Under the pieces are notes generated by a model, which was not told where the DNA came from, made no database searches, and worked only from the letters and a program-made list of their open reading frames with translations. A stretch of DNA of 64,000 nt. Origin: Thermoproteota archaeon (GTDB lineage: Archaea > Korarchaeota > Korarchaeia > Korarchaeales > Korarchaeaceae). Location of the stretch: the NCBI GenBank assembly GCA_027492205.1, contig JAOZFN010000007.1, forward strand, positions 1-64,000. The letters are read 5' to 3'. Within the stretch, counting starts at the first letter, position 1. The number at the start of each line of letters is the position of its first letter. Made by a program: the position numbers and the translations under genes. Of this stretch, positions 34,442-56,573 are shown piece by piece.

Positions 34442-34452
34442 TCCCCATGGAC

Positions 34453-35235: not shown

Positions 35236-35287
35236 GCGAGGGGTAAATATGTTGCTACCACTCCATCGTCAAGCGGACGGCTTAAAC

Positions 35288-36645: not shown

Positions 36646-36676
36646 TTCCGGACCCGCGTCCGATGGTGGTATAAAA

Positions 36677-37666: not shown

Positions 37667-38581
37667 CTAAGCCAGCCTCAGGAGCTTTGCGATCAGCGTC
37701 TTTAGGGCCCCTACGATAATGACCCGGGCCACCTTCCCGCTGGGGGCTATCCAATCCTCGGAACTGGCATCTTCGTCCATCTCAACGTTTAGCCCCTTGA
37801 ACAGCACGACGGGTATGCCCTCGTCGGCCTGCCCCATGAGCAGGGCCGCCGCGGCCGCGAGCTCGTCGGCCACGGAGTCGTCTCCCCCGAACTTTGGCCT
37901 TCCAAAGTAGTCCCTGGCCCCAAACCTCCTGCGGATCGGAAAGACGTTGGCGACCCCCACCGCCACGTCGATGGAGCCGATCTTCATGGGCTGGAACTCC
38001 GTGTCGGAGATCACGATCCCCACCCTGGCGCCCGTGAGTTCCCTTATGCGGTCGGCTATCTCTCGGGCCTCCTCATCCGGATCTGGCGGCAGCAGGCAGA
38101 CGTGGCCCTCGGGGCAGTTGGAGTAGTCCATCCCAGCGTCGATGAGGGTCAGCCCCCTGGCTCTCATGAGCAGGACGTCCCCGGCAGACTCCACCATCTT
38201 CCTGGCTTCTTCGGGGTCAACCGCGAACCTCTCCGGGAAGCCCGTCCCCCTGGCGGCCTTGGAGAAGGGCATGATGAACGCGAGGCTTCCCCTCTCCCTG
38301 ATCAGCTCGACCTCCCAGGGCTCTCGGCCTGTCAGCCACGCCAACAGCTTGCTCCTGATACTCGGCTTGACCTCCCCCGGCATCGCGACGTATCCCTTGG
38401 CGCGAGAGATCACCTTGCTCGCCACCACGAGCACATCTCCGTCCTCGAGTCTCTCTCCAACCTCACCTGCGGCCTGGACGATGAGCTCGGCCAGGTCATC
38501 TCCCTGCAAAACCCGAGGGAGTCTGAGCCCGATCATCCTGACATCCGCGGGGTGGGGATCCTCCTTGGAGGGAGATCTCAT
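37667..38581 (-). CDS. CofE-like (F420-0:gamma-glutamyl ligase family) protein, copy 1
   Basis: GLRLPRVLQGDDL, DGDVLVVASKVISRA, DAGMDYSN, LPPDPD, ISDT, VADELAAAAALLMGQ. Confidence 0.85.
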   Translation of the reverse strand: MRSPSKEDPHPADVRMIGLRLPRVLQGDDLAELIVQAAGEVGERLEDGDVLVVASKVISRAKGYVAMPGEVKPSIRSKLLAWLTGREPWEVELIRERGSLAFIMPFSKAARGTGFPERFAVDPEEARKMVESAGDVLLMRARGLTLIDAGMDYSNCPEGHVCLLPPDPDEEAREIADRIRELTGARVGIVISDTEFQPMKIGSIDVAVGVANVFPIRRRFGARDYFGRPKFGGDDSVADELAAAAALLMGQADEGIPVVLFKGLNVEMDEDASSEDWIAPSGKVARVIIVGALKTLIAKLLRLA

Positions 38582-38741
38582 TAGGCGACGCGCTCTCGGC
38601 TCGGAATTTAATCTGACCGCGGCGTTTTTCCGGACAGGAGGGGTGAACGTAACAGCGGCCGGGTTCGAAAGCCTAACCGACCTATCACTTTTATGGGGGG
38701 GCCTCGGGTGCCCGCAAAAGAAACCGTAGACGGGTGTTTAG

Positions 38742-40163
38742 GTGTTGAACGAGGAGGGTAGGGGCCTGCGGCTCTCAGTTCAGGAGGCCCTCGCTGCCAT
38801 CTGGATAGCCCTGGGGGCCATCGTCGTCGCCGCCACATCTCGCCAGTGGAGCTTCCGCCCCCTCACCCAGGCGGAGTTCCTCCTGAGGTTCATCGGCCTC
38901 CTAGGGGCAATGGCCTTCACTTCGCTCCTCTACACGGCCTGGAAGTCGAAGGTCGAGGCGCTACTGTCGGGGCACTGGAGGGGGGTCCTGGCGGGCCTGA
39001 GCGTGATGGTGATGTTCGGCTGGCTCGACGTGATAGAGACGGTCTTCGAGGTCCCGCCCATCTTGCACTTCTACAAGCTCGGGTGCACGGTGCTGGCAAC
39101 GTTCGTGGCTGGCTGGAGCCTCACGAGCTACCTGACCGACCTAACGAGTGGGCTCACAGCCAAGAGGGCGATCCCGCGGGTGGACCCCCTGCTGGTGCTC
39201 GTCGGCTGGCTCGCACTCTTGACCGCAGTGGTTATCGCCCAGAGGCCGTGGGAGTGGCCGACGATGCCCGAACCCAAGCTGGGGGAGGTCCCGTTCGACA
39301 TAATCAACCTGGCGTTTGACGCCGTCCTGGGCACGAGGCTCCTGCTGGAGTCGAGGAGGTCCGGCTATCCGGCCAGGTGGCTCCTGAGGTGCGGCTCCGC
39401 CGCCCTGTACCTGGGGGCCGCCGCCAGCGTCTTCACCACGCTGGACGACACGCTGATCATCCCCCGCATCGTGAGAATCGTCGGGGTGAGCGGGAGCGCC
39501 GCCGTGGCCCTGGGATTTGCGCTGGCCCTGGTCGCCTACTACCTGTACGGCACGACGGCCCTCAGGCCCACGCTCCCCGGAGTTGCCGGGCACTTAGGCC
39601 TGCCGGAGGTGGGGCCAATCAGGTCCAGGCGACCGGACGAGTGGAGCCGCCTGGGGACGTTCTCCGGGAGGGTCATCCTGTTCGAGGTCTCCACGATGAG
39701 GGGCTACGCCGATGCGCTCGAGGACCTGGCCTCCCACCTGAAGTCTAAGGGATACAGGATCGTGCTGATAGGGAGGAGGTCGTCCCCCGCGGCCCCCAAG
39801 ATTGCCAAGCACGCCTCTCTCACCCTCTACGTCTCCGCCGGCAGGATGGGACCGCCCAAGCAGGTCGGGGTGGGGGAATTCGAGATAGGGGCGGATCCGG
39901 CCGTAATCCTGGGGATGATATCCAGGGCCAGGGAGGAGGGCGACAGGCTGGCAGCGATCGTCGAGGACACCACCGGTCTGCTGGTTCTCCTGGGCGGAGA
40001 AAGCACATACCGGCTCCTCAGGGCGATGATCGACCAGCTGGCCGCTCACGATTCCGTGGTGGTGATGGTCCTGCCGCCGGAGGCCCACGACCCGAAGCTT
40101 GTCAACCTGCTGAGGAGCCTCGCCACGAACATAATCGACCTGACCGAGGGGGTGGAGGCGTGA
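38742..40163 (+). CDS. ~8-TM membrane protein with C-terminal inactive KaiC/DUF835-like domain, copy 1
   Basis: Eight hydrophobic segments then RecA-like alpha/beta domain (AAIVED, AHDPKLVNLLRSLA) lacking Walker A. Confidence 0.7.
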   Translation: MLNEEGRGLRLSVQEALAAIWIALGAIVVAATSRQWSFRPLTQAEFLLRFIGLLGAMAFTSLLYTAWKSKVEALLSGHWRGVLAGLSVMVMFGWLDVIETVFEVPPILHFYKLGCTVLATFVAGWSLTSYLTDLTSGLTAKRAIPRVDPLLVLVGWLALLTAVVIAQRPWEWPTMPEPKLGEVPFDIINLAFDAVLGTRLLLESRRSGYPARWLLRCGSAALYLGAAASVFTTLDDTLIIPRIVRIVGVSGSAAVALGFALALVAYYLYGTTALRPTLPGVAGHLGLPEVGPIRSRRPDEWSRLGTFSGRVILFEVSTMRGYADALEDLASHLKSKGYRIVLIGRRSSPAAPKIAKHASLTLYVSAGRMGPPKQVGVGEFEIGADPAVILGMISRAREEGDRLAAIVEDTTGLLVLLGGESTYRLLRAMIDQLAAHDSVVVMVLPPEAHDPKLVNLLRSLATNIIDLTEGVEA

Positions 40164-40439
40164 TCGCCCCGGGGGCGAAGGCCTCTATCCAGTCCGGCTC
40201 GCCTGGCCATTCGATCGTTGGGTAGGCCCTAAGCGTGACCTCAGCGTAGTTTTAGGGACTTTCCTCACGCTGACTCTATCGGCGGCCTTCCTGGCGATGA
40301 TGGTCGTCTGAGAAGTCTTCAACCCGGCTGAGAGCCTCAGGGTTGCCGAGATGCTTGCTGGAGACCTCGCTCCGGGGCTCGTTGCCCTTAGGTCGGCGTG
40401 CCTGTCGCATCTAATCGCCCGGAGAATGGCCCAAGCGAG

Positions 40440-40480
40440 AAGATAAGAAAGAAGAGAGCCCGAAAACGGGCAGAAAAGCG
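40440..40480 (-). terminator. tRNA terminator
   Basis: CTTTTCT GCCCG-TTTT-CGGGC hairpin plus T-rich run after CCA. Confidence 0.55.
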
Positions 40481-40619
40481 TGGTGGGGCCGGTGGGATTT
40501 GAACCCACGTCCTACGGGTCTCCCCCTCAGTGCTCCACCGACTGGAGCCCGCCGCCCTGACCTGTCCAGGGCGACCTCGGCCTTATCATCGGGAGGCCAC
40601 CTGGCTGGGCCACGGCCCC
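40481..40619 (-). tRNA. tRNA-Trp(CCA) with two introns (40564-40602 in the D-loop; 40520-40541 at 37/38), encoded CCA
   Basis: GGGGCCG/CGGCCCC acceptor, GCCC/GGGC D stem, GCGGG-CTCCAG|A-CCCGT anticodon arm, GTGGG-TTCAAAT-CCCAC T arm; 78 nt after removing both introns. Confidence 0.9.
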
Positions 40620-40644
40620 ACCGCACGCCCTCTGGGGCCAGACA

Positions 40645-40660
40645 GTATATAACGGTTGCG
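40645..40660 (-). promoter_or_regulatory. tRNA-Trp promoter
   Basis: CGCAACCGTTATATA ~27 nt upstream of G1. Confidence 0.65.
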
Positions 40661-40776
40661 AGGACCTCCCAGATCTAGCCGGAGGTCGAGGGTCCTCTCC
40701 GCCGGACGCTCCGCGGGTGGGCTCTCCCGCCCCACTCCAGGCGGGCCGGTCGAGCTGAGCTTGCGTCGGCGGTCGC

Positions 40777-42234
40777 TCACGCGACGCGGACCTTCTCCGC
40801 CCTTGCCCTCGCGACCAGGAGGCAACCCGGGTCGGGCGCCTGTGGGTCTCCCAGGTAGCCGTACGCCCTCGCCCTGCACCCCCCGCAGACGTACCTGAAC
40901 GGGCAGGTCCCGCAGGGCTCCCTCAGGGAGTCCTTGTCCCTGAGCCTCCACAGGAACTCGTCGGTGCGCCACCACTCCTCGAATCCGTCGCCCAGCTCGA
41001 GCACGTTGGCCAGGGTCTTTGGGAAGAACACGCACGGCCTCACGTCCCCGTTGGGCGAGAGCCCGATGTAGAACCTGCCGGCCCCGCAGCCGCCTATGAA
41101 GTCGGCCAGGCTCCTGAGCCTCCCGCCCAGCTCGGCGTCGTAGAAGTGGGTCGGCAGCACCAGCTTGCCACGCCCGCCCTCTCTCGCCTCCGCCTGCAGG
41201 GACACCCTGGCGAACTGGGGGGCCGTTGTCAGCACCTTCGGGCTTCCTCCTTCCCTCAGCTTATCCCAGAGCCACCTGAGCAGCTCCTCCCTCTCCTCTG
41301 GCGAGAGGTCGAACCGGTCGATGAACACGCCCCTGCCGGTGGGCACAAAGTTGTACACCATGAACCACTGGGCCCCGAGCTCCCGCACGAGATCCACGAT
41401 CCGGGGAATCTCTCGGTAGTTAAGCTTCGTCGCCGTGGTCGCCACGTTGACGAAGAAGCCCCTCTTGACCGCGACCTTTATCCCCCTCACGGTCTTCTCC
41501 CAGGCGCCGGGGACGCCCCTGAACCCGTCGTGGGTCTCCGGCGAGGCCCCATCGAGGCTTATCTGGAGAAACCTCACACCTGAGTCCCAGAGCCTGTCAG
41601 CCGTCTCCTCGTCTATGAGCGTGCCGTTCGTCGCCATGGCCACGTAGAATCCCTTCTGATGGGCGTACCTGCTCAGCTCGTATATGTCGGGCCTCACCAG
41701 GGGCTCTCCCCCGGACCAGGCTATCGCCACGACCCCGGCCCTGTGCAGGATGTCGATGACCCTCTTCGCCTCCTGAGTGGTCAGCTCGTCCTCCAGAGGA
41801 ACGCCCGCGTTGGCGTAGCAGTGCCTGCACCGGAGGTTGCAGGCGTACGTGACGTCCCAGACCACCAGGAAGGGGGCCCCGGGCACGAAGGGCCTGCGCA
41901 CGCCGAAGGCCTCCAGCCCCCTCATGACGCTGACGAGCGCCCTCCTCCAGTGCTCTTCGCCCATCCTGCTCTTCAGCTCCGAGAAGTCGGCCCCGAACGC
42001 CTTGGCGCCCATTCTGAGCACGAGCTCGGTCAGCCTGGCGGCCGTCCGGCAGGACATCGGCAGGCGCTCCCGGCCTCTGACCCCCGCGATGAACTCCAGG
42101 GCCACCTCAAGTCTGCTCTTTCCCGTCCCACGGCACTCCCTCAGGAGCCTCCTAAGCAGCATCCTCGATGCCGGGCTCTCGATTATTCTCTTGAAGGACC
42201 CTACGGATCCGGCCAGGTCACTCAAGCCGCTCAC
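40777..42234 (-). CDS. Radical SAM/SPASM protein with N-terminal extension
   Basis: CNLRCRHC, WSGGEP, GCGAGR...PC, CGTCPFRYVCGGCRARA. Confidence 0.9.
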   Translation of the reverse strand: MSGLSDLAGSVGSFKRIIESPASRMLLRRLLRECRGTGKSRLEVALEFIAGVRGRERLPMSCRTAARLTELVLRMGAKAFGADFSELKSRMGEEHWRRALVSVMRGLEAFGVRRPFVPGAPFLVVWDVTYACNLRCRHCYANAGVPLEDELTTQEAKRVIDILHRAGVVAIAWSGGEPLVRPDIYELSRYAHQKGFYVAMATNGTLIDEETADRLWDSGVRFLQISLDGASPETHDGFRGVPGAWEKTVRGIKVAVKRGFFVNVATTATKLNYREIPRIVDLVRELGAQWFMVYNFVPTGRGVFIDRFDLSPEEREELLRWLWDKLREGGSPKVLTTAPQFARVSLQAEAREGGRGKLVLPTHFYDAELGGRLRSLADFIGGCGAGRFYIGLSPNGDVRPCVFFPKTLANVLELGDGFEEWWRTDEFLWRLRDKDSLREPCGTCPFRYVCGGCRARAYGYLGDPQAPDPGCLLVARARAEKVRVA

Positions 42235-42547
42235 CTCCCTCGAGCAGGCGCTCCAGCTCCCGGATCCTCTCCCTCAGGTGATCCGCGGCCGCCTGGATCA
42301 TCTCCGAGGGGGGCGGCAGGAAGTAGGCGTAGGACAGCCTCCCTCCCCTCTCCACCGGTCTCCGCCTGATCAGCCTCCTGGACAGGAGGCTGTGGAGCCA
42401 GTCGTGGGCGGCCCTCCGCGAGATGCTGAGCGCCCTGGCCACCTCGGATATGGTGAGCTCGCCCTCCTTTGCCAGGAGGTGGAGGATCTCCGCGGCCCTG
42501 GGCCTCAGTCCGAGGGTGCGAACTACCGTGTCGATTATTCCTTCCAT
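42218..42547 (-). CDS. TrmB-like winged HTH regulator
   Basis: LGLRPRAAEIL, LTISEVARALSISRR, GRLSYAY; overlaps the rSAM gene start. Confidence 0.8.
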   Translation of the reverse strand: MEGIIDTVVRTLGLRPRAAEILHLLAKEGELTISEVARALSISRRAAHDWLHSLLSRRLIRRRPVERGGRLSYAYFLPPPSEMIQAAADHLRERIRELERLLEGGERLE

Positions 42548-42807
42548 CGTGTGAAGAAAAATTCTTCATGTTATATAAAAGAATGACCTTCGCAGTGGGA
42601 ACTCCCCCCCATGATGGCGGACCTGGCCTCACACACCAGTCCTCCCCCGCGATCTCGGGCCGCCCGATCGCCAAGAAGGGGTCTACGCAGTTCCTGCGCT
42701 CTAAGAAGCCTCCTCTGGCCGCTTCCCGGAAAGACGTGGCGGTAGACGCCGGAGGCGAGTTCTGGAGGCCCCTCGATCCTCAAGACGGCCCGCCTGACCG
42801 CCGAGGA

Positions 42808-43056
42808 TCACCCCTCCTCCCAGACCTCCTCTAGGTACTTCAGCGGGGCTCCGGCCCCCTTCCTCCTCCTCCAGGCCCTGACGGCGGCCGCCAGGGCGGC
42901 GGCGGTCAGGGTAGCGTAGATGATCGCCGAGGCCCTCGACCCCCGAAGAGCGCTGACGGCGGCCCCGACGGATCCGAGGACGCAGGCCAGCGTTGCCAGG
43001 GTGAGCGCCAGCCCGTACCGCCTGTAGCTCTCCCTCAGCCTCTCCAGGGCCCCCAG
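42808..43056 (-). CDS. Small two-TM membrane protein (CTG start; not in ORF track)
   Basis: LGALERLRESYRRYGLALTLATLACVLG...AIIYATLTAAALAAAVRAWRRRK...EEG*; 4 nt after the udp stop. Confidence 0.6.
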   Translation of the reverse strand: MGALERLRESYRRYGLALTLATLACVLGSVGAAVSALRGSRASAIIYATLTAAALAAAVRAWRRRKGAGAPLKYLEEVWEEG

Positions 43057-43060
43057 GACC

Positions 43061-43825
43061 CTACCCTCCCCTCTCCCTCTCGAGGATGACGGCGGCCTCC
43101 AGTGCTGTCTTGATTGCCCTGTCTATGGCCTCGGCCCGCCTGGGGTCGTCCTGATCGACCAGACCACCCTCGCCCGTGCTGAGATTCGCAACGACGCCGT
43201 TGACTGTGCCCGCCTCCAGCCCGCGCAGGTGACTCACGACGAATATGGCGGAACTCTCCATGTCTAGGCTGATCACCCCTAGCTCTCTGAGCCCCTCTAG
43301 GTACTCGGGCGTCTCGGCGTAGAATGCGTCGTCCGAGCTGATAATGCCAATGTGGTGTTTGTATCCAAGCGACTCCGCCGCCCTCCTGAGGGCCAGGAGC
43401 ACCCTGAGGCTGGGAACAGCCGGGAATCCCTCGGGCACGTAGAAGTACGACGTCCCCTCGTTCCTCACGGCCCCGTTGGGTATGATCAGGTCGGCTATTC
43501 TCACGTGAGGCTGGAGCGCCGCGGAGGTGCCTACGCGGATGAACACCTCGGCCCCCACGTTCGCGAGTTCCTCCACGGCTATCGAGGCGGAGGGGCACCC
43601 TATCCCCGTGGAGGTGGCGGAGATCCTGACCCCCCTGTAGGTCCCCGTGACGGTCAGGAACTCCCTGTTGTGGGCCACTTCCTCGGCCTCGTCCATGTGC
43701 TCGGCTATCCTCCTGACCCTGCCCGGATCCCCGGGTAGGAGGACGTACCGGGCCACGTCGCCCGGCCTAACCTTGAGATGGTACTGCAGCCTCCCCTTGG
43801 AGACCTCCCTCTTGTCAACGGCCAA
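43061..43825 (-). CDS. udp: Uridine/nucleoside phosphorylase
   Basis: QYHLKV, LLPGDPGRV, NREF, TGIGCPS, IRVGT, DMESSA; TTG start at 43825. Confidence 0.9.
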   Translation of the reverse strand: MAVDKREVSKGRLQYHLKVRPGDVARYVLLPGDPGRVRRIAEHMDEAEEVAHNREFLTVTGTYRGVRISATSTGIGCPSASIAVEELANVGAEVFIRVGTSAALQPHVRIADLIIPNGAVRNEGTSYFYVPEGFPAVPSLRVLLALRRAAESLGYKHHIGIISSDDAFYAETPEYLEGLRELGVISLDMESSAIFVVSHLRGLEAGTVNGVVANLSTGEGGLVDQDDPRRAEAIDRAIKTALEAAVILERERGG

Positions 43826-43884
43826 CCCAGGATCACCGAGGGCGGGAACCACCGGCAAGTTATAACGGCGGGAGTGGTTTCCCT

Positions 43885-44268
43885 TCAGAGAGTCTCCCAC
43901 CTCGCCATCTCCGTGGCGGGGTACATGAACGCCCTGACGACCCCGTAGGCCTCGAGCGCGTCCTTCGCCCGGGACCTCAGGGTCGTCGGACTCGCCCTCA
44001 CCGACCCCGGAATCAGGTGGGCGACGTCGCCCATCTCGGGACCCGTGAACTCTGCCTCTACATCCAGCGGTCCGGTTGGGGGCCTGACCATCACGCGCCC
44101 CTCCGCGATCCTCCTCACCGCCCGGAACGCGTCCTCCATCTCTCTCAGAACTACACGCCGGGGCGGCCTGCCCAGTATCAGGACGTTGTATCCGAGAGGC
44201 AGGCCGCCGAGGGTGTAATCGATGGGTTCGATCCCGGTCCTCAGTCTGTCGGTTGGGATGGCCGTCAA
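43885..44268 (-). pseudogene. Deletion chimera: KaiC-like ATPase N-terminus fused to M55 (DppA) aminopeptidase C-terminus
   Basis: RLRTGIEPIDYTLGGLPLGYNVLILGRP breaks at the Walker A position, then VEAEF..GDVAHLIPG..TLR...DALEAY. Confidence 0.6.
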
Positions 44269-44711
44269 TCTGGACCACCCGCCGGGAGCCTCTCCAGGCG
44301 GCGTGAACGGGCGAGGTAAAAAATCAACTGCGAACTGCAGCCAATTCAATGCCCTCCACATCATGAGACGAGTTTCTTTACATCTGCACGGTTACCCTAC
44401 CCAAAGGGATAAGCGCAACTCAAAGGAGGGAGCACCGTCCGTCCCCCCAGGGGGCTGGCGAGGCCCCCTCCCAACCGGCTGGGGAGATTCGGCCAAGTGG
44501 GGCGCCTCTGGGGTACAACCACCCTCAAATAAGGGTCAATCGCGTTGGCCATCGGGCGGAGAGCGGGGTCGAGTTCGTTGAGTGGACGGGGGTCGGCAAG
44601 CCGACCGTCGGCCACGGCACGGGGCCCCGCGAGTCGGCTTCGTCATCCCCAGCCTACCAGCGCACCCACCCACCTATATTATATTCCAGTCGCGGGGCCG
44701 CCTGACCCGCC

Positions 44712-44951
44712 ATGCCGGTGGAGGCCTACACGGCGGTGAAAGTCAAGCCCCCGAAAGCTCCCAAGTTCAAGGAGGTCTTCCCCACCCTCAACAACGTGGT
44801 CGAGGTCCTCTACGTCACCGGACCATTCGACTTCCTCCTGAGGATAGTCGCCGACAACACCTTCGAACTCTCGAAGGTGCTTGAGGACATCAGGTCCGAC
44901 GAGGATGTAGTGGAGACCGTGACATTCATAGTCCTGGAGAGGCTGAAGTGA
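44712..44951 (+). CDS. Stand-alone Lrp/AsnC ligand-binding domain
   Basis: VTGPFDFLL...IRSDEDVVETVTFIV. Confidence 0.85.
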   Translation: MPVEAYTAVKVKPPKAPKFKEVFPTLNNVVEVLYVTGPFDFLLRIVADNTFELSKVLEDIRSDEDVVETVTFIVLERLK

Positions 44952-45460
44952 AGGAAATCAGGCTGTTCGTAGTCAGGCTCGAGCACGACGACCCGAGGAA
45001 GGCCACAGGGATCAGGCTGATTAGGCGGGGCCTTGCCGTGAGGACTCACAGACCCCCTCGGGGGGCCGTAATCTTGGACCCAACCTCTCACGTTTACCTG
45101 AGCCCTGCAGACCGCGAATCGGCGGAATCCAGGGGTCTCGTGGCGGTCGACGCCTCCTGGCGCAGGATCGACGAGGTTAGGTGGCCCCGAGGGAGGAGGA
45201 GGGTGCTCCCGCTACTCGTTGCGGCCAATCCGATAAACTACGGCAGGCCCTTCAGGCTCTCAACCGCAGAGGCCCTCGCCGCGGCTCTGTTCATCTTGGG
45301 CCGCAGAGATCAGGCCGAGAGGGTGCTCGCAGAGTTCAAGTGGGGCCCCGAGTTCATCAGGATCAACGAAGACTGGCTCGAGGCGTACTCGGAGGCTGAA
45401 GGTCCAGAGGAGGTCGGAAAACTCAGCGAGAGGTTTTACGGTGAGCTGGCGGGGGGGTGA
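44948..45460 (+). CDS. tsr3: rRNA aminocarboxypropyltransferase Tsr3
   Basis: DDPRKAT, LSPAD, DASW, LPLLVAANPINYG, LSTAEA, FKWG. Confidence 0.92.
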   Translation: MKEIRLFVVRLEHDDPRKATGIRLIRRGLAVRTHRPPRGAVILDPTSHVYLSPADRESAESRGLVAVDASWRRIDEVRWPRGRRRVLPLLVAANPINYGRPFRLSTAEALAAALFILGRRDQAERVLAEFKWGPEFIRINEDWLEAYSEAEGPEEVGKLSERFYGELAGG

Positions 45461-45463
45461 TCC

Positions 45464-45895: not shown

Positions 45896-45951
45896 GCAGC
45901 GGGTCGAGTTGGGGTTATATCGGTCGCCCGCCGCGGGGGATCGGTAGGTGC

Positions 45952-46221: not shown

Positions 46222-46247
46222 TCCCCGGCGGGGGGGTTCGCTCTCGA

Positions 46248-48092: not shown

Positions 48093-48163
48093 TCGAATTA
48101 AGCGCTCCCCTCCCGACGTCGGCTAAGGTTAATTTCCGCCCCTCTCACTGCCCCAACCGATCG

Positions 48164-48985
48164 ATGTTGCTGCGAGAGAGGCTCCGCCCCTACGTTGAGA
48201 GGGCCGACAGGGCTCTGTCCAGGCTTCTGTCCGAACACGCGTCCTCTCCATTCGCACATCCCCTAATGGAATTCGTTTCGGGCGGTAAGAGGGTCAGACC
48301 GGTCCTCCTATACCTGAGCCACGAGGCGTGCGGGGGCGGAGCCGAGCCCGACCCTGACCCCGCCGCAGCGGCCGTAGAACTCATTCACACCGCGTCCCTG
48401 ATCCACGACGATCTGATAGACGGGGACCGAGTCCGAAGGGGGAGGCTGGCCTTTCACGTGAGGTTCGGCACGGACCTCGCCGTACTTATCTCCGACTTCG
48501 TACTGTCCCTCGTGCTGGATGTGGCCGCCGGCTATGCAGATCCAAGGATCGCCCGGGCCCTGGCGCGGACTACGAGGGTCATGAGCGAGGGCGAGGCAGA
48601 GGAGGCGAGGATCAGGGCGAGGGGAGAGCAGATATCCTTCAAGACCTACCTCCGAATACTTGAGAGGAAGACCGCCTCCCTGTTCAGCGCATCCGCCGAG
48701 CTCGGGGCGATCATCGCCAGGGCAGAGGACAGGGTGGTGAGCGGGATGGCCGAGTTTGGCAGGCTGGTCGGCATGGCGTACCAGCTGAGGGACGACCTGC
48801 TCGACTTCGGAAAGCCCGGCGAGATAAGCGCGCTCGTCGAGGCGAAGCCCGTCGGCCCGATAGGCGCGGCCTCGGAGGACTTCGCCAGCAGGGCAGTCGG
48901 CCTTCTGGAGTCTCTGGTTTTGCCGTCTGAAGCTAGGGACCTGCTGCGAGAGCTGGCCCTCTACGCGACGAGGTGGGAGGGGTGA
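48164..48985 (+). CDS. trans-Polyprenyl diphosphate synthase
   Basis: GGKRVRP, HTASLIHDDLID (FARM), KTASLF, YQLRDDLLD (SARM). Confidence 0.92.
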   Translation: MLLRERLRPYVERADRALSRLLSEHASSPFAHPLMEFVSGGKRVRPVLLYLSHEACGGGAEPDPDPAAAAVELIHTASLIHDDLIDGDRVRRGRLAFHVRFGTDLAVLISDFVLSLVLDVAAGYADPRIARALARTTRVMSEGEAEEARIRARGEQISFKTYLRILERKTASLFSASAELGAIIARAEDRVVSGMAEFGRLVGMAYQLRDDLLDFGKPGEISALVEAKPVGPIGAASEDFASRAVGLLESLVLPSEARDLLRELALYATRWEG

Positions 48986-49707
48986 GCGGCGGCCTCCCGA
49001 GCGACCGCTGGATCAGGGTGGAGGCCGCGCTGAGTGAGCTCGGCGGGGCGTATGAGAGGGCCAACGCCGCCATGTCTCTCGGGCTGGCCGGTAGGCTGAG
49101 ATCGAGGCTCGTGGCCGACCTCCAGCCCAGGCCGGGAGAGGTGGCGCTGGACGCCGGCTGCGGTCCGGGTCAATCCTCAGAGCTGCTCGCGATGGCCATC
49201 TCGCCGGGCGGAACCCTGATACTCATGGACCCACTCGCCGAGATGCTGGTCGCGGCCCGGGAGAGGGCCTCCCGCGCGGGGAGGTGCCTCGGGGTGCTCA
49301 CCGTCAGGGCGAAGTTCGAAGACATCCCGCTGGCGGACGAGTCCGTGGATCTGGCCCTGGCCTCATACTCTCTCCGCGACGCCGTGGACAGGGGGGAGGC
49401 GCTGAGGGAGCTGAGGCGAGTCTTGAAGGTGGGCGGAAGGCTGGGGGTCCTGGACCTCACCAGGCCCGACGGGGGGGCGGTTGACGCCCTGGCCCGGGCC
49501 TACGTCAGGTGGGTGGCCCCGGCCTTGGCGGGTCTGGCGACCCTGAGGCTCGACGTCTCCCCGTGGAGGGAGATCTATCCCACTTACGAGGCGATGTGGA
49601 CCTCGTCGGAGCTCGTCAGGGAGGTAAGGAGGATCTTTGAGGTGAGGAAGGCGTTCAGGTCCGCGCTGGGCGTCTTCACAGGTGTGGTGGCCGAGAGGTT
49701 GAGGTGA
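48973..49707 (+). CDS. UbiE/MenG-family methyltransferase
   Basis: YERANAAMSLG, LDAGCGPG, SYSLRD, LRELRRVLKVGG. Confidence 0.8.
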   Translation: MGGVSGGLPSDRWIRVEAALSELGGAYERANAAMSLGLAGRLRSRLVADLQPRPGEVALDAGCGPGQSSELLAMAISPGGTLILMDPLAEMLVAARERASRAGRCLGVLTVRAKFEDIPLADESVDLALASYSLRDAVDRGEALRELRRVLKVGGRLGVLDLTRPDGGAVDALARAYVRWVAPALAGLATLRLDVSPWREIYPTYEAMWTSSELVREVRRIFEVRKAFRSALGVFTGVVAERLR

Positions 49708-49741
49708 AATTTTTTCCTTTTAGGGAGGGCAACAACCTGAG

Positions 49742-51469
49742 ATGCCCAAATACGATCTCGCCCTGTTTCACGCCCCCAGCGTCTATGACTTCAGGAACAG
49801 ACCGATGTTCAAGTGCCTGACGAGCGAGGTGGTGCCTTCTTTTCAGGTATTCGACATGTACCCCTACGGGTTCCTCACCCTCTCCACCTGGCTCTCCCGC
49901 CGCGGGAGGGGGGTCGGCATCTTCAACCTCGCCTCGAAGATGATCATCGACCCTGACTACGACCCGATGAGGACGATTCGATCCGTAGACTCCCTCGTCT
50001 ACGGCGTGGATCTCCACTGGCTCGTCCATGCCCAGGGGTCCCTAGAGGTCGCCAGGCTGATCAAGCGGGAGCACCCCGACTCGCTCGTGCTGCTCGGGGG
50101 GATCTCGGCGACGTACTTCTGGAGGGAGATCTTGGAGGGGCACCCGTACGTCGACGCGGTCGCGCTCGGGGATACGACGGAGGAGACGGTCGAAGAGATA
50201 GTGGAGAGGGTTGATCGCGGGAGGGGGCTGGACGGAATCCCCGGGGTTGCCTGGAGGGACGCCGACGGGAGGATCAGGATCCAGCCCCCTCGAGACCCTC
50301 CCGAGTCCCTGGACCCCTACGAGGTTGACCACGGTATCCTTGTGAAGATGACGCTCAAGGAGAGGGACCTGGCACTCGTGGCGCCCTGCGCCTCCTTCAT
50401 CAGCACCCCCATAGCCGCCGTCCTGACCGTCAAGGGCTGCACGTACAACTGCGTCACCTGCGGCGGCTCCAGGAGCGCCCAGGAGAGGATCTTCGGAAGG
50501 AGGGGGGTTGCCCTCAAGAGCCCGGAGGCCATAGCGAGGGAGGCCGAGTCTGTCTCTTCCATGTCAAAGATGACGATATTCTTCATCGGGGACCTGAGGC
50601 TGGGCAGGGGGGAGGAAGGGGCCTTGGAGGTGGTGGAGACTCTCAAGAGGGCCGATCTGGACAACCCGCTGATGTTCGAGTTCTTCTATCCCGCCGGCAG
50701 GAGACTCTTAGGGTCGCTGAGATCCCTTGGAGACGAGGTTTACATACAGATCTCACCCGAAAGTCAGGATGAGTCCGTGAGGCGGGCCTTCGGGAGGATC
50801 TACGGCAACGAGGAGCTGGAGAAGATGGTGAGGGTCTCGGGGGAGTTAGGCTTCAGGAGGCTCGACCTGTATTTCATGACGGGGCTCCCGCGGCAGACCC
50901 CCGAGGTAGCGGCCGGGGTCGCCGACTACGTGGACAGGCTCATCGAGCTGCACGGAGAGGGGCGGATGGACGCCTTCACGGCCCCCCTCGCCCCCTTCGT
51001 CGACCCCGGGAGCCCGGCCTTCGAGCATCCGGAGACCTACGGGTATGAGATACTGTTCAGGAACCTCGAGTCCCACCGCAGGGCCCTCGAGGAGCCTCAC
51101 TGGGGCTTCACCCTCAACTACAGGACGGTGTGGATGAACCGACCGGACATAGTCGAGGCCAGCCTGAGCGCCTCCCTCAACCTGGCGAGGGTCAAGAGGG
51201 ACAGGGGAATGATAGGAGAGGACCTCTACGAGATCATCAGCGAGAGGGTGGCGCTGGACAGAGAGATATTCTCCAGGCTTCAGAGGGGCCCGCTCACGCC
51301 GGAGGAGGAGTCCGAGTTCCTGGAGAGAGCCAGAGAGCTGGTCACGAACAAGGAGGTGGCCATAAACAGGGAACTCTACCCGTCCACACCGCTCAGCGAG
51401 TCCCTGAGGCTCCCGCCCCCCCTGAACCTCCTCGTCTCCAGGGTGATAGGGCGGATCAAGCCGGCTTGA
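49742..51469 (+). CDS. B12-binding radical SAM protein (Ta0216/TIGR04190-like)
   Basis: HAPSVYDFR, FDMYPYGF, DLHWLVH, KGCTYNCVTCGGS, APFVDPGS. Confidence 0.85.
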   Translation: MPKYDLALFHAPSVYDFRNRPMFKCLTSEVVPSFQVFDMYPYGFLTLSTWLSRRGRGVGIFNLASKMIIDPDYDPMRTIRSVDSLVYGVDLHWLVHAQGSLEVARLIKREHPDSLVLLGGISATYFWREILEGHPYVDAVALGDTTEETVEEIVERVDRGRGLDGIPGVAWRDADGRIRIQPPRDPPESLDPYEVDHGILVKMTLKERDLALVAPCASFISTPIAAVLTVKGCTYNCVTCGGSRSAQERIFGRRGVALKSPEAIAREAESVSSMSKMTIFFIGDLRLGRGEEGALEVVETLKRADLDNPLMFEFFYPAGRRLLGSLRSLGDEVYIQISPESQDESVRRAFGRIYGNEELEKMVRVSGELGFRRLDLYFMTGLPRQTPEVAAGVADYVDRLIELHGEGRMDAFTAPLAPFVDPGSPAFEHPETYGYEILFRNLESHRRALEEPHWGFTLNYRTVWMNRPDIVEASLSASLNLARVKRDRGMIGEDLYEIISERVALDREIFSRLQRGPLTPEEESEFLERARELVTNKEVAINRELYPSTPLSESLRLPPPLNLLVSRVIGRIKPA

Positions 51470-51474
51470 TTGGT

Positions 51475-52704
51475 TCAAGTTCGCACGGGAATGGTGGTGG
51501 TCCCCTCCGGCATCACCACGACCTTGGGATTTGAGAGCCCCCTCAGGGCCGCGTCGACCCCCTCCTGGAGGGAGGAGACCGGCTCCATCTTGTAGAGCCC
51601 CCTCACCTCTGCGGGATCCATAGAGGTCAGGAACAGGATCCTGTTCCTCTCCACGGCTCTAAGGTGATAGTAGGCCTTGTGACCCCCCAACTCGAACGTC
51701 CGCTTGAGGGCAGCCTCGACCTCGTCTGAGGAGGAGTACTTCCTCATGTACTCGACAAACTTCCTATTCCCCGCCCCGTCCCTGCACTCCGCGACGAACA
51801 CCACCGCCCCCCCTGGCTTTACGACCCTGAGGGCCATGTGAAGAGCCTTGTAGGCCTGGTAAAGGTCTACGTCGTGCGGGTATCCGTTGGCAGCAACGAT
51901 CACCACATCCGCTGGCTCCCCCTCGTACCTCACCTTGTACATGCGATCCACGACCCTCGCGCCGGCCCTGAGCACGTCCCTGTGGTGCCCGCCGTGCGCA
52001 GAGACTATCTCGTGCTCGGCGTTCTGCACCACGTTGAGCGTGAACTCTGCCCCGGCCATGTCAGCGGCCTCCTCCATGTCCTCGCTGACTGGGTTCCCGT
52101 CGAGGACGCCCACCTCGGCTCCCGGGAGGAACATCATCTTGTGGTTGGCCTGTATGGTCTCGTAGGAACTCACTCCCGGGAGTACGCTCTTCCTACCGCC
52201 GCCGTACCCGGCGAAGTAATGAGGTTCGACGTCGCCCAGGAGAATGCGGTAGTCCGCGGTCTGGTAGAGCTCGTCCACCGCGACGGGGGTGCCCCTGCCG
52301 GTCTCCCCGAGGTAGACGTGGGCCCCCCTGCAGTCGTGGCTGACCGCCTCGACGGTTCCGTGGTGCTTTCCCAGGATCTCCTTCGCCTCATCCGGGGAAA
52401 CGGGCCTGTGGGTGCCGGTTGCGAAGATCACCTTTATCCGGCCCCTGGGGACCCTCAGCCTCCCCAGCACGTGGTCCAGCATGACCTCGGTCGGGCAGGG
52501 CCTAGTGTGGTCGTCGACCACTATCACGACCCTGCCGGAGGGCTCCTCCTCCAGGCCCGGGCTCGCGGACTCCAGCGCCTCGGAGACGATCTCCCCTGCC
52601 TGGGCGTCAGGTTTGAGGGGCCTGGGGCGCAGCACGGTCACGTCCGCGGTCTCTGGTATCTCGGCGGAGACGAAGCCCCGCCCGTAGGGGAGTTCTATCC
52701 TCAT
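51475..52704 (-). CDS. LarA-family nickel-dependent racemase/epimerase
   Basis: ELPYG, DHTRP, ATGTHR, PHYFAGYGGGRKS, GYPHDVDLYQ, GGHKA; ATG at 52704. Confidence 0.88.
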   Translation of the reverse strand: MRIELPYGRGFVSAEIPETADVTVLRPRPLKPDAQAGEIVSEALESASPGLEEEPSGRVVIVVDDHTRPCPTEVMLDHVLGRLRVPRGRIKVIFATGTHRPVSPDEAKEILGKHHGTVEAVSHDCRGAHVYLGETGRGTPVAVDELYQTADYRILLGDVEPHYFAGYGGGRKSVLPGVSSYETIQANHKMMFLPGAEVGVLDGNPVSEDMEEAADMAGAEFTLNVVQNAEHEIVSAHGGHHRDVLRAGARVVDRMYKVRYEGEPADVVIVAANGYPHDVDLYQAYKALHMALRVVKPGGAVVFVAECRDGAGNRKFVEYMRKYSSSDEVEAALKRTFELGGHKAYYHLRAVERNRILFLTSMDPAEVRGLYKMEPVSSLQEGVDAALRGLSNPKVVVMPEGTTTIPVRT

Positions 52705-52768
52705 CGCGTTCCGCGTGTCGGTCGGTGGATAAAACGTTTTGACGGACCGAGGTCCGCCTCGGCTGAAG

Positions 52769-54094
52769 ATGACCAGGCTGAACGTGGACCTCCTGGTGCT
52801 GGCCTCCGCAGTGATCCCCGTCGACCCGCCAGGGCTCGTGATCCGAGATGGGTACGTGGCCGTCGAGGGAGGTAGGATTGTCTCAATCGGCAGGAGGTCA
52901 TCCATGCCGCCCGTCTCCGCAGGGGAGGTCGTCGAGGGGAGGGGCATGGTCGCCCTACCCGGCCTGGTAAACGCCCACACTCACGTGGCCATGACCCTGC
53001 TGAGGGGGCTCGCCTCCGACAGGCCGCTGGACGAGTGGCTCAGGGAGATATGGAGGGTAGAGGCCAAGATGGGTCCAGAGGAGGTGCTAGACGGCGCGAG
53101 GCTGGGGATATTGGAGATGCTCCTCTCAGGAACAACCACCTTCTCAGACATGTACTTCCACGAGGACTCGGTGGCCAGGGCCGCTCTGGAGTCCGGGGTG
53201 AGGGCAGTCCTTTCCTACGGGATGATAGACGCCCCGGGCTGGGAGAGGGATCCGGACAGGACCGTTAAGGAGCTCAGGGAGGCCGAGAGGTTCATAGAGG
53301 ATTGGCACATGGCTGGCGCCGGCAGAATAAGGGCGGCAGTGGGTCCGCACGCCCCGTACACGTGCTCTGAGGAGCTCCTACGCGCCTCCGCCGAGCTCGC
53401 CAGGTCCAGGGGTCTGAGGCTCCACATACACCTCTCCGAGACCAGGAGGGAGGTTGAGGAGCTCAGGGAGATAGCTGGGGAGGGGCCCCCCTCCTACCTG
53501 GACTCCCTCGGGGTGCTGGGACCCAACGTCCTGGCGGCTCACGGGGTCTGGCTCGACCGGGAGGAGATCTCACTCTTGGCCTCCAAGGGGGCGAGCGTGG
53601 TCCACTGCCCGGCCAGCAACCTGAAGCTGGCGTCCGGCATCGCCCCGGTGGCCGACATGCTCAGGGAGGGGGTGAACGTCGCCCTGGGGACCGACGGCCC
53701 GGCCAGTAACGACTCCCTCGACATGTTCAGAGAGATGCGCCTTGCGGCCCTCCTCCAGAGGGGGAGTAGGCTCGACCCGAGGGCGCTGACCTCCTGGGAC
53801 GTGCTCAGGATGGCGACCGTGAACGGGGCGAGGGCGCTGGGACTCGCCGATGAGATCGGAACGCTGGAGGCCGGCAAGCGGGCCGACCTAATCTTGGTGG
53901 ACCTCAGGAAGCCCCACCTCTCCACTCACAGGGACCCGGTACCGGCGCTGGTCTTCTCTGCCACCGGCGACGACGTGGACACGGTGATAATCGAGGGGAG
54001 GGTGATTGTCAGGGCCAGACGGGTAATGACGATGGACGCGGAGGAGGTGGTGGAGCGGGCCTCCCGGGCCGCGACGAGGCTCGCATCCGGCTGA
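52769..54094 (+). CDS. mtaD: 5-methylthioadenosine/S-adenosylhomocysteine deaminase-like amidohydrolase
   Basis: PGLVNAHTH, DMYFH, GPHAPYTCS, HIHLSET, NLKLASG, GTDGPASND. Confidence 0.85.
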   Translation: MTRLNVDLLVLASAVIPVDPPGLVIRDGYVAVEGGRIVSIGRRSSMPPVSAGEVVEGRGMVALPGLVNAHTHVAMTLLRGLASDRPLDEWLREIWRVEAKMGPEEVLDGARLGILEMLLSGTTTFSDMYFHEDSVARAALESGVRAVLSYGMIDAPGWERDPDRTVKELREAERFIEDWHMAGAGRIRAAVGPHAPYTCSEELLRASAELARSRGLRLHIHLSETRREVEELREIAGEGPPSYLDSLGVLGPNVLAAHGVWLDREEISLLASKGASVVHCPASNLKLASGIAPVADMLREGVNVALGTDGPASNDSLDMFREMRLAALLQRGSRLDPRALTSWDVLRMATVNGARALGLADEIGTLEAGKRADLILVDLRKPHLSTHRDPVPALVFSATGDDVDTVIIEGRVIVRARRVMTMDAEEVVERASRAATRLASG

Positions 54095-54130
54095 GGACCA
54101 TTTCAACCTTGACCTAGATCCCAGAAAACC

Positions 54131-55549
54131 TCAGGCCAACTTCTTGATCTCGGGTGGGTATCGCGTGGCGTTAATGACCCAAGTGGCGAGGCCCCTTATC
54201 AGGTTCATCTCCCGATCGCCGTGGGCGCCTCGGTTCACTACGAGCACTACCACGGCCCTCTCCGGGATTAGCATGTCTATGAGGGCCCTGATCAGGCGGT
54301 AGGCCCCGTCCAACCCGATGAGAGTGGTCATATCGCTGACGTTCTCCACCACGAGCGACATCCTCTTCTCGGGCGTGATCAACCTGCTCACGATCCCCAG
54401 GATCACGGATGGGCTCAGGCCCACCTCCAGCTCGCCCGGAGACAGCTCCTTAGGCGCGGCCATCCTGCCGGGGCTGACCCGGATAGTCAGGTCAGACTCC
54501 GACGCCACCTCCCTCAGAGGGGTACCCCGCCTAGCGATCACCACGATCTTCATGTCGAGCTCCCTAAGCCACGACACTAGGCTGGCTATCATCTCCGAGG
54601 GAGATGTCAGAGGCTCGAACTCCATCAGAATAACCTCGCCCTCTCCTCCGACGTCCAGGCCAAACTCCCTCCAGTCAATCTCCGGTCCACCCTCCCCCTC
54701 CGTGTGGGGGGGCTCCCTATATGGCGTGGTTCCCAGCAGATAATAGCCGAACCCGGATATGGCCACCCCAAGAGCGATGGCTCCCGTGAGAGTGTAACCG
54801 AAAACGTTCATCGTCTTTGGGGTGAGGAACAGGTCCTCGAACATCACGTAGAGTTCCGCCACCGCGCCAAGTGCCATCGAGGTCATGGAGGCCTCGACTA
54901 GCCACCTGCCAGCCCCTGTGACCGTCCCCAGGGCTTTGGTGAGCCTCCACAGGTTCGCGGCGAGCACGCCCGCGATCGCTATGTCCAAGGTGAGGTCCAG
55001 ATACCTCGGCCGTGGGAGCGGCCCGATGTACCGAAGCGACCACGCGGTGACTGAGATCAGCACAGCTAGCCACGCTGCGAAGATCCAGGTCGGTCGAACC
55101 CTGGGGACCCCCCTCTTGGCGGTCACTAGGGAGGCCAGCCTGGCCATTATCGACGTGAGTGACCAGGAGCATATCCCCACCGAGATTAGGATCGTGAGGA
55201 GTTCCATCACGTGCACGTACTCAGGGAGGACGAAGGCCGAGTCGACGAGTTCGATGAGCAGGAAGTATACCAGGAGTGCCTGCCCCCAGGTGAAGTACTT
55301 CCAGTCCCTCCAGAGAAGGGCCTCCAGCCTCTGCAGCACGATGAAATACAGGATGATGAGGGCCATACCAGCCGCCAGGAGCCCCACGGCCCTGCCGAGG
55401 AAGCTCAGCGGGTCGACATTCTTCGGCACCCAGTCCCCCGTGCTCTCCAGCAGCACGATCGTGGCCAAGATCACCCAGACAAGCGACGCAATCTCTGGTA
55501 TGTTTGTGCTGGAAGCGGAAAGGGCGTGAGACCTCGGGGACATTTTCAA
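54131..55549 (-). CDS. ~8-TM membrane protein with C-terminal inactive KaiC/DUF835-like domain, copy 2
   Basis: Paralog of 38742..40163: shared WSLTS, TAKRxxPRV, YYLxGTT, GRMxxPK, VILG, YRLxRAxID motifs. Confidence 0.7.
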   Translation of the reverse strand: MKMSPRSHALSASSTNIPEIASLVWVILATIVLLESTGDWVPKNVDPLSFLGRAVGLLAAGMALIILYFIVLQRLEALLWRDWKYFTWGQALLVYFLLIELVDSAFVLPEYVHVMELLTILISVGICSWSLTSIMARLASLVTAKRGVPRVRPTWIFAAWLAVLISVTAWSLRYIGPLPRPRYLDLTLDIAIAGVLAANLWRLTKALGTVTGAGRWLVEASMTSMALGAVAELYVMFEDLFLTPKTMNVFGYTLTGAIALGVAISGFGYYLLGTTPYREPPHTEGEGGPEIDWREFGLDVGGEGEVILMEFEPLTSPSEMIASLVSWLRELDMKIVVIARRGTPLREVASESDLTIRVSPGRMAAPKELSPGELEVGLSPSVILGIVSRLITPEKRMSLVVENVSDMTTLIGLDGAYRLIRALIDMLIPERAVVVLVVNRGAHGDREMNLIRGLATWVINATRYPPEIKKLA

Positions 55550-55676
55550 CCTCCTCCCGCGCTCCCCTTCGACCCGTCAGGTCCATTCATAGTGAGAACC
55601 GAACACCACGAGCGCTTGTATGTAGAAGGCAAACCGGCTAATAGTCTTGGCGTCTAATCAGGGGGGAGGATATTTC

Positions 55677-56573
55677 ATGTCTAATCCGGGTGGGAGGATT
55701 GAGTTAATTGGGTTGAGGCTCCCGGAACTCAGGCAGGGAGACGATCTCCCGAGTGTGATCCTCTCCGCGATCGATTCCATGGGAATCGAGCTCAGTGACG
55801 GCGACGTGTTGGTGGTAGCCAGCAAGGTGGTCTCCAAGGCGAAGGGCCACTCAGTGCGGATCTCTGATGTGAAGCCTTCCCTCAAGTCCAGGATCTTGGC
55901 CAGGATAGCGGGCAGGCCGGCCTGGCTCGTGGAGCTCGTCAGGAGCGTCGGGAGGATCGTGCTGATACTTCCCTTCTCGGAGGCAAGCAGGGGGACCGGC
56001 TTCCCGGAGGAGTTCTCCCCGGACCCGGAGGCGGCGAGGGCTATGGTCGAGGAGGAGGGGGGGACGATACTGGCCGAGGTGGCCGGAGTCGTGATCACGG
56101 ACGCAGGGATCGACTGGTCCAACTGCCCGGAGGGTGTGGCCGCGCTCCCTCCCCCCGACCCAGACGCCGAGGCCCGGGAGATAGCGGAGCGCATCAGGGA
56201 GCGGACGGGGGCCAGGGTCGGGGTGGTGATCTCGGACACGGACTTCGCGCCGTTCAGGATGGGCTCCGTGGACTGGGCCGTGGGCGTCTCCGGAATCGAT
56301 CCCGTGAGGAGGTCTTTCGGGGAGCCAGACCTCTATGGGAAGCCCAAGTTCGGGGGCGTGGACCTCGTGGCCGACGAGCTCGCGGCAGCGGCCGCCCTCC
56401 TCATGGGGCAGGGGTCCGAGGGAATCCCTGCGGTGCTCGTCAGGGGGGCGCCGGTGACGCTGAGCGACGACGCCAGGTACTCCACGGTTACGGCCCCGGT
56501 CTCCAACATGGGCAGGGCGTTCCTCAAGGGACTCCTGAAGACGGCCCTCGCCAAGATTCTAAGGCTCGTCTGA
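55677..56573 (+). CDS. CofE-like (F420-0:gamma-glutamyl ligase family) protein, copy 2
   Basis: GLRLPELRQGDDL, DGDVLVVASKVVSKA, DAGIDWSN, LPPPDPD, ISDT, VADELAAAAALLMGQ. Confidence 0.85.
   Translation: MSNPGGRIELIGLRLPELRQGDDLPSVILSAIDSMGIELSDGDVLVVASKVVSKAKGHSVRISDVKPSLKSRILARIAGRPAWLVELVRSVGRIVLILPFSEASRGTGFPEEFSPDPEAARAMVEEEGGTILAEVAGVVITDAGIDWSNCPEGVAALPPPDPDAEAREIAERIRERTGARVGVVISDTDFAPFRMGSVDWAVGVSGIDPVRRSFGEPDLYGKPKFGGVDLVADELAAAAALLMGQGSEGIPAVLVRGAPVTLSDDARYSTVTAPVSNMGRAFLKGLLKTALAKILRLV

Follow-up and report, generated by a model that had tools for sequence, protein, structure and literature searches.

Does a GTP-dependent ligase of the CofE family work together with a membrane protein that ends in an inactive-KaiC (iKaiC)-like domain, or do the two genes only lie side by side? 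The question is raised by the stretch of DNA analysed here (the window), which comprises the first 64 kb of contig C9 (JAOZFN010000007.1) in the genome of a korarchaeal Thermoproteota archaeon (G000; 1.94 Mb, 17 contigs, approximately 63% G+C, estimated completeness 96.4%). An initial annotation, made from the sequence alone, had described a CofE-like gene and a gene for a protein with eight transmembrane (TM) helices as a head-to-head pair that occurs twice in the window, with all four genes intact and clearly diverged. The four open reading frames (ORFs) are indeed open throughout, both pairs are divergent across short spacers (Table 1), and about 14 kb lies between them. Ligases A and B share 57% identity over 290 aa (E 5e-110), and membrane proteins A and B share 32% over 463 aa (E 6e-72); the copies are true homologues, far above chance. 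The ratios of nonsynonymous to synonymous substitution (dN/dS) of the four genes against the closest relative genome were 0.26, 0.21, 0.10, and 0.30, which indicates purifying selection in all of them.

The answer favoured here, tentatively and with somewhat less than even confidence, combines an autonomous ligase for a substrate other than F420 with a lineage-specific membrane iKaiC sensor or regulator that is coupled to the ligase. The finding is narrower than it appeared at first, in that it involves a single duplication, extends no further than one genus and the sister genus, and concerns a dispensable partner. The more general result is a branch of the CofE family, here called the long type, that is widespread among archaea and bacteria and very probably not tied to F420. 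Literature searches found no report that links membrane iKaiC proteins to a CofE-family ligase or that treats the long-type subfamily.

The long-type branch of the CofE family

Both window ligases matched PF01996 (E 1.7e-55 and 2.7e-58), in agreement with the CofE-like assignment of the initial annotation. An AlphaFold2 model of ligase A (69-sequence alignment; predicted local distance difference test, pLDDT, 91.3) was superposed on the Archaeoglobus fulgidus enzyme (Af-CofE; PDB 2PHN, 2G9I, and 7ULD) with Z 29.3 and a root-mean-square deviation (rmsd) of 2.3 Å over 243 aa of 2phn_A at 38% identity; the two ligases are 38–39% identical to Af-CofE. They also exceeded the curated cut-off of the F420_cofE equivalog model TIGR01916 (201.6 and 194.9 bits against 180.65), and automatic pipelines would therefore name both genes CofE, a label that is likely an over-annotation. 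In a tree of 32 CofE-like sequences from 40 genomes of the class, from which one 176-aa fragment had been removed beforehand, the window ligases fell inside a clade of 12 (support 98/99). This long-type clade is marked by an insertion of approximately 30 aa, located after the second helix pair, and by a longer C-terminal helix.

Residue conservation was counted in 69 long-type sequences, namely ligase A and 68 ORFs of 280–360 aa; one near-identical copy and two ORFs outside these limits were excluded. The long type shares with Af-CofE the fold, the Pfam family, and the GTP/Mn motifs D..SN, DT, and D, which are represented by D152 (68/69), N155 (69/69), D193 (69/69), T194 (66/69), and D224 (69/69). 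Judged by these motifs, the window ligases are predicted to be catalytically intact members of the GTP-dependent carboxylate-amine (gamma-glutamyl-type) ligase family. The 2007 structure paper on Af-CofE reportedly places D109, D150, T151, and E208 at the metal/GTP site, with E208 as a metal ligand; at the first three of these positions the long type keeps the residue in 68, 69, and 66 of 69 sequences. The long type differs from Af-CofE in having Q251 at the position of E208 (68/69) and E195 at the position of N152 (66/69). Moreover, the hairpin that reads YGRELEVT in Af-CofE is YG[KR]PKFGG in the long type, where P229, K230, G232, and G233 are each present in 69/69 sequences and F231 in 64/69. 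According to a 2024 structural study (PMC10861534), F420 in Af-CofE is wrapped by a domain-swapped hairpin, and its chromophore is contacted by F92, G153-C155, and R234 of the partner chain. In the alignment, as distinct from a structural comparison, the long type conserves no residue at any of these contacts: the F92 column contains I, L, V, T, or M, the G153-C155 columns contain variable hydrophobic residues with P, L, or I at the last, and R234 falls within a non-conserved stretch. The sharply defined set of invariant motifs makes the long-type branch a clean target for enzymology.

The C-terminal helix is also distinctive, being approximately 12 aa longer than that of Af-CofE, basic, and hydrophobic; the last 32 aa carry a net positive charge in 66 of the 69 sequences, with a mean of +5.0. 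In ligase A this helix is modelled with a pLDDT of 83–93, and since the structural alignment to Af-CofE reaches residue 292 of 304, the helix is mainly an extension of the equivalent terminal helix of CofE itself. Its hydrophobic moment was 0.50, compared with 0.40 for the rest of the protein, and exceeded the protein's own maximum in 10/69 sequences. A role of this helix as a membrane anchor was considered and dropped as a mechanism, and the helix is retained as a descriptive feature only.

The initial annotation had seen no other cof genes in the window and had proposed a non-F420 substrate, and the genome as a whole points the same way. At 96.4% completeness, it gave no matches to CofC (PF01983), CofD (PF01933), CofG (TIGR03550), FrhB_C (PF04432), or luciferase-like proteins (PF00296), in searches that each gave matches in the expected control genomes and that did not include CofH and the FDOR families. 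CofG was above its cut-off in none of the 40 genomes of the class, 27 of which have CofE-like matches. Among five other genomes that bear the long type, a clear CofG was present in one (G054, 439 bits), which also encodes a separate canonical CofE (275 bits). In one Planctomycetota and one Caldisericota genome of this set, the long type was the sole PF01996 member above 100 bits, and CofG was not found. The window ligases are very probably not F420-0:L-glutamate ligases. Genes that curated models label as such are very probably non-F420 enzymes both here and in many bacteria and archaea that lack F420, and mislabelled CofE genes affect the inference of F420 pathways from metagenomes.

Species-representative genomes yielded 79 loci when they were scanned with the alignment of the long type. 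The archaeal records came from Bathyarchaeia, Desulfurococcales, Nitrososphaeria, and Baldr-, Odin-, and Njordarchaeota, and the bacterial records from Anaerolineae, Caldisericota, Acetothermia, Aminicenantes, Thermotogae, and Halanaerobiaceae, together with 20 labelled Planctomycetota. Within the flanks surveyed, which extended up to 6 kb and were shorter on many contigs, an iKaiC neighbour was found at six of the 79 loci, all of them in the genus of the window genome and its sister genus. The other neighbours were heterogeneous and included a methyltransferase, PIN, THUMP-SPOUT, NTP-transferase, radical SAM, Ogg, and M48 peptidase proteins, as well as MetRS, FtsZ, RtcA, and Cas6; a clue to the substrate came from RibD in Planctomycetota alone. 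The order ligA-ribD-ligase was present in 17 of the 20 Planctomycetota-labelled records, in 11 of which ribD lay immediately upstream (<100 bp); ribD encodes RibD_C and deaminase domains, ligA (an NAD-dependent DNA ligase) precedes it in most, and uvrC is convergent and downstream of the long-type gene in 13 loci. These 17 records are related and count as one observation. The linkage is the only recurrent hint at a flavin- or pyrimidine-type substrate. The ribD-linked loci are L091, L096, L100, L104, L106, L108, L111, L115, L116, L123, L124, L127, L130, L131, L140, L142, and L150.

The window genome contains four PF01996 genes, two of which lie outside the window. One of them (C7:88918-89745) overlaps the end of a gene for an MptE-like 6-hydroxymethylpterin diphosphokinase and faces a Pterin_bind (DHPS-type) gene (C7 86863-89745, locus L158). 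The other, on contig C6, overlaps a DUF359 gene (C6 55272-56650, locus L159), a family that includes the archaeal GTP-dependent dephospho-CoA kinase. Evidently, this organism has put the CofE family to several uses unrelated to F420. A precedent for PF01996 enzymes that act on non-F420 cofactors is the putative TIGR04132 folate gamma-glutamate ligase of intracellular bacteria, with chlamydial FolC2 as a case. The window ligases differ from it in scoring far below its cut-off (60.0 and 69.6 bits against 350), and their branch is distinct from that of the pterin-linked copy on C7. As separate observations, the C7 gene is likely a pterin- or folate-type glutamate ligase in an organism that shows no evidence of FolC, and a B12-binding radical SAM gene lies upstream of the C6 gene on the opposite strand.

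The membrane proteins and their iKaiC-like domain

The AlphaFold2 model of membrane protein A (13-sequence alignment; pLDDT 78.6) consists of eight long helices (residues 13-35, 43-69, 78-101, 106-136, 149-166, 180-205, 211-237, and 242-268), the number counted initially, followed by a low-confidence linker and an alpha/beta domain that starts at approximately residue 296. The best Foldseek matches of this domain were PH0250 (2ekd), RecA, FlaH, and KaiC. An independent all-against-all search aligned residues 296-472 to 2ekd_A with Z 13.4 and an rmsd of 3.0 over 159 aa, and gave Z of approximately 12.5 for Elp4/5/6, PH0284, and FlaH and 11.3–11.5 for KaiC chains. The Walker A pattern [AG]xxxxGK[ST] was present in none of the 13 family members; as a control, a true KaiC-like ATPase elsewhere in the genome contains GNPGTGKT. 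The membrane proteins thus end in a RecA/KaiC-fold domain that has lost its P-loop, that is, an iKaiC domain akin to DUF835 and MEDS.

The initial annotation had called this an inactive-KaiC/DUF835 domain, of which the fold, the missing Walker A motif, and the profile kinship stand, while the formal DUF835 cut-off is missed. DUF835 (PF05763) scored 13.0 bits in membrane protein A and 20.4 bits in B, below the gathering threshold of 33.1, and Pfam gave sub-threshold matches to DUF7504, DUF7090, and DUF835 alone. Membrane protein B matched the iKaiC profile hidden Markov model (HMM) with E 7.7e-39. When the family profile was searched against 1.84 billion representatives, 345 proteins were found at E ≤ 1e-3 and eight at E ≤ 1e-30. 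The first 62 aligned matches were covered by DUF835 (31), DUF7504 (24), DUF7090 (20), MEDS (9), and KaiC (3), and a few of the aligned matches carry REC (Response_reg) or HTH (HTH_45) domains. The kinship of the membrane proteins with DUF835 comes from the profile search and the fold alone. They resemble the iKaiC families (DUF835, MEDS PF14417, DUF7504, and DUF7090) in the RecA/KaiC fold, the lack of Walker A, and the position of the domain after a membrane domain, but differ in falling below the Pfam cut-offs and in an eight-TM module that is specific to a few genomes. A census of archaeal two-component systems (PMC5847659) includes DUF835 and MEDS, under the name 'iKaiC', among the output domains of response regulators.

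The positive-inside rule would put both the N-terminus and the iKaiC domain on the cytoplasmic side, and under that topology the conserved W36, P105, P178, and D236 would face outward. The eight-TM module is nearly confined to this lineage, and a fragment 94% identical to membrane protein A was found in a record from 'Candidatus Korarchaeota archaeon'. Feature scores of the eight-TM part against MASE3, MASE4, and HisKA_7TM were 0.80–0.83, a range that is also reached by shuffled sequences, and none was 0.9 or above. No transporter family in Pfam or NCBIfam matched the TM domain.

The membrane proteins belong to a larger set in their own genome, where an HMM of the C-terminal domain detected seven ORFs at E ≤ 1e-15, five of them multi-TM proteins of 434–473 aa. 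One eight-TM paralogue on contig C1 (469 aa) lies directly upstream, on the same strand, of a gene for a KaiC-family ATPase (PF06745, 9e-45; Walker A GNPGTGKT), and a V4R-protein gene comes next. A PALP enzyme and a B3_4-domain protein are encoded immediately after two further paralogues, and the genome contains nine KaiC-family matches above the cut-off. The iKaiC membrane family has the appearance of a group of membrane adaptors that serve a KaiC-type network, a role that Makarova and colleagues reportedly proposed in 2017 for iKaiC-type proteins. The C1 cassette itself (34380-37455, locus L153) is a candidate signalling set composed of a membrane receptor, KaiC, and a small-molecule-binding protein. 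Membrane-anchored iKaiC proteins are predicted signalling parts without known partners, and a conserved neighbour of defined chemistry offers an experimental starting point.

Origin and meaning of the pairing

Copies A and B are sisters in both gene trees. In the ligase tree, A (G000, G001, and G003) and B (G000, G001, G002, and G004) form sister clades (support 92/94), and the single ligase of G007, a genome of the sister genus, lies outside A+B. Membrane proteins A, with A' of G004 among them, and B likewise group as sisters in their own tree (SH-aLRT 91). Genomes G004 and G002 have the order membrane B (-), ligase B (+), membrane A' (-), followed by TtuA-like, PHP, and further genes, and the gene order beyond A' matches the left flank of the window. 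The flank in G004 fits an ancestral order of ligase A, membrane A, ligase B, and membrane B. The simplest history starts from a head-to-head unit that was duplicated once, in tandem, at the stem of one genus. On this account, the G002/G004 line then lost ligase A, the B pair of the G000/G001/G003 line moved and changed orientation without coming apart, and G003 lost ligase B together with its right flank. Because of the single duplication, the two pairs count as one association and not as two. In the 72% complete genome G002, an in-frame TAG leaves the A'-type gene (C61 2616-3985; L009, L017, and L073) as two ORFs, which represents a pseudogene or an assembly error.

The initial annotation had held that the pairing was kept through an old duplication, which applies to most copies: in the five genomes of the genus, nine of ten A or B membrane genes adjoin a long-type ligase gene, whereas single-ligase trios and a lone membrane B depart from it. 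In the two species G002 and G004, one ligase lies between both membrane genes. Seven metagenome contigs were found with the A/B alignment. Two of them held only C-terminal fragments at contig ends; the other five were informative, and all showed adjacency, as an A pair, a B pair, and three arrangements that are trios or tail-to-tail. G007 also has its ligase next to an iKaiC membrane gene, tail-to-tail, and no other gene within 14 kb there has a homologue in the 64-kb window. Adjacency in homologues thus held for the five genomes of the genus, the sister genus, and the informative contigs, but not for most of the 79 ligase loci. Since either ligase can be lost, one ligase would suffice for both membrane proteins.

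The tentatively favoured explanation would work as follows. The ligase would act, with no need of the membrane protein, on a conserved carboxylate or amine substrate other than F420. In this genus and the sister genus, the membrane iKaiC protein may serve as a sensor or adaptor that is coupled to the ligase, either via the shared divergent promoters or because the ligase docks onto the iKaiC domain. A signal from the membrane or envelope would then govern how much ligase is expressed or how active it is, and this signal could be fed into the KaiC-type ATPase network of the cell. The two units would have diverged after the duplication. Complex prediction of membrane protein A with ligase A from two alignments gave scores of 0.00 and 0.00 in runs without controls, and is neutral on binding. 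A stronger version, in which long-type CofE-like proteins are widespread GTP-dependent non-F420 amide ligases of a conserved metabolite or macromolecule that became wired directly to membrane iKaiC receptors in one korarchaeal lineage, with cognate pairs that co-diverged, is distinctly unlikely; if true, the KaiC-type signalling network proposed for archaea would gain its first concrete enzymatic output, or an input that produces a ligand.

Several observations weigh against the favoured explanation. Within the surveyed flanks, 73 of the 79 long-type loci lack an ORF with an iKaiC domain, which makes the membrane protein an accessory rather than an obligate partner and indicates that ligase function does not depend on it. 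Two other genera of the family have the long-type ligase and no match to membrane protein A; their ligase neighbours, identified by reading the sequences, include an FTR1-like permease and a P-type ATPase. No ligase adjoins membrane B in G003, and ligase A is missing from G002 and G004. The G007 partner groups with another paralogue, and a clade of A, B, and G007 was rejected (approximately unbiased test, p-AU 0.010, with long branches), so this partner may be non-orthologous to A and B. Spacers A and B, the former with AT-rich, TATA-like stretches on either side when judged by eye, share no k-mer of at least 7 that is conserved in orthologues. The Gln at the E208 position could alter the chemistry of the ligase. 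Finally, all adjacent cases are close kin, from one genus and one genome of another, and inherited synteny may therefore explain much.

The last point leads to the explanation that there is no functional coupling at all, and that the genes became neighbours in the ancestor of the two genera, were copied by a segmental tandem duplication, and have kept their adjacency over short distances. This account, which we rate as rather unlikely, is consistent with the single duplication behind both pairs, the close relationship of all positive cases, the dispensability of one or the other ligase, the lone membrane B of G003, and the lack of a motif common to both promoter regions; other iKaiC paralogues also have unrelated neighbours (KaiC and V4R, a PALP enzyme, and a B3_4 protein). 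It fits less well with an adjacency that outlived at least three rearrangements (the translocation and inversion of pair B, the disappearance of ligase A while the remaining trio stayed together, and the loss of all surrounding synteny in G007) and with purifying selection on both genes of both pairs. The strong divergence of membrane A from A' of the trio lineage (40–42% identity, compared with 64–67% among B orthologues) also argues against it.

A salvage or retention module, in which the eight-TM domain imports a cofactor or precursor, the ligase traps it by adding one or more glutamates, and the iKaiC domain gates transport, is quite improbable. Polyglutamylation traps folates in cells, the de novo F420 genes were not found in the genome, the C7 gene in a pterin operon suggests that the family is used here for non-F420 cofactors, and the distribution of long-type ligases is patchy and transfer-like. 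CofE-family enzymes put gamma-glutamyl tails on cofactors, according to the structural study of Af-CofE (PMC10861534). On the other hand, the TM domain has no transporter family match, with leads to sensor modules at chance level, most long-type ligases have no membrane neighbour, and iKaiC, DUF835, and MEDS domains otherwise belong to signalling architectures, REC fusions among them (PMC5847659, and the Response_reg and HTH_45 domains in the profile matches). That both ligases are ordinary F420-0:L-glutamate ligases is hardly credible, although they exceed the TIGR01916 cut-off, share 38–39% identity and the fold with Af-CofE, and keep the core metal and nucleotide motifs. The F420 families searched for were not found in their own genome, nor was CofG in any of 40 class genomes; the residues that contact the chromophore in Af-CofE are not maintained, and another motif stands in the hairpin; G054, where CofG exists, has a separate canonical CofE as well; and the long type is the sole PF01996 member above 100 bits in one Planctomycetota and one Caldisericota genome without CofG.

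Neighbouring genes and other features of the window

Table 1. Coordinates of the two pairs and of other features in the 64-kb window
Feature	Position	Strand	Length	Remarks
TtuA/NcsA-like PP-loop ATPase	36677-37618	-		Adjoins ligase A
Ligase A	37667-38581	-	304 aa	Long-type CofE-family (PF01996) amide ligase
Divergent intergenic region, pair A	38582-38741		160 bp
Membrane protein A	38742-40163	+	473 aa	TM helices ~38778-39545; iKaiC-like domain ~39627-40160
tRNA	40484-40619	-	136 nt	Just downstream of membrane gene A
Polyprenyl synthetase, UbiE/MenG-like methyltransferase, TIGR04190 protein	48164-51469	+		Three genes in a row
LarA-like racemase ORF	51475-52980	-		5' end overlaps amidohydrolase ORF
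Amidohydrolase ORF	52739-54094	+		5' end overlaps LarA-like ORF
Membrane protein B	54131-55549	-	472 aa	Paralogue of A, equal architecture; length from TTG, ATG present at 55543; iKaiC-like domain ~54131-54680
Divergent intergenic region, pair B	55550-55676		about 130 bp
Ligase B	55677-56573	+	298 aa	Long-type CofE-family ligase; length from ATG 55677, longest ORF begins earlier at TTG 55647

The TtuA/NcsA-like gene next to ligase A is regarded as context and is not claimed for the module. Its product contains PF01171 and a zinc ribbon, and reached 158 bits against the NCBIfam TtuA model, below the cut-off of 450. At six loci (L075, L076, L077, L095, L141, and L148), a TtuA/NcsA-like homologue lies within approximately 1.7 kb of a long-type ligase; they represent two genera of the family, and one of these genera is without the iKaiC membrane partner.

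The tRNA was detected by Rfam at 44.8 bits and presumably contains an intron; ARAGORN found no tRNA in the whole window. The three genes between the pairs that are listed together in Table 1 may form a cluster for isoprenoid-quinone or lipid methylation. The third encodes a B12-binding radical SAM protein of the TIGR04190 (Ta0216) family that scored 607 bits, over the cut-off, and a gene for a major facilitator superfamily transporter lies upstream on the other strand. The LarA-like protein scored 397 bits against a malate-racemase model, below the cut-off of 500. The 5' ends of the LarA-like and amidohydrolase ORFs overlap by approximately 240 bp, and the true starts of both genes are probably internal.

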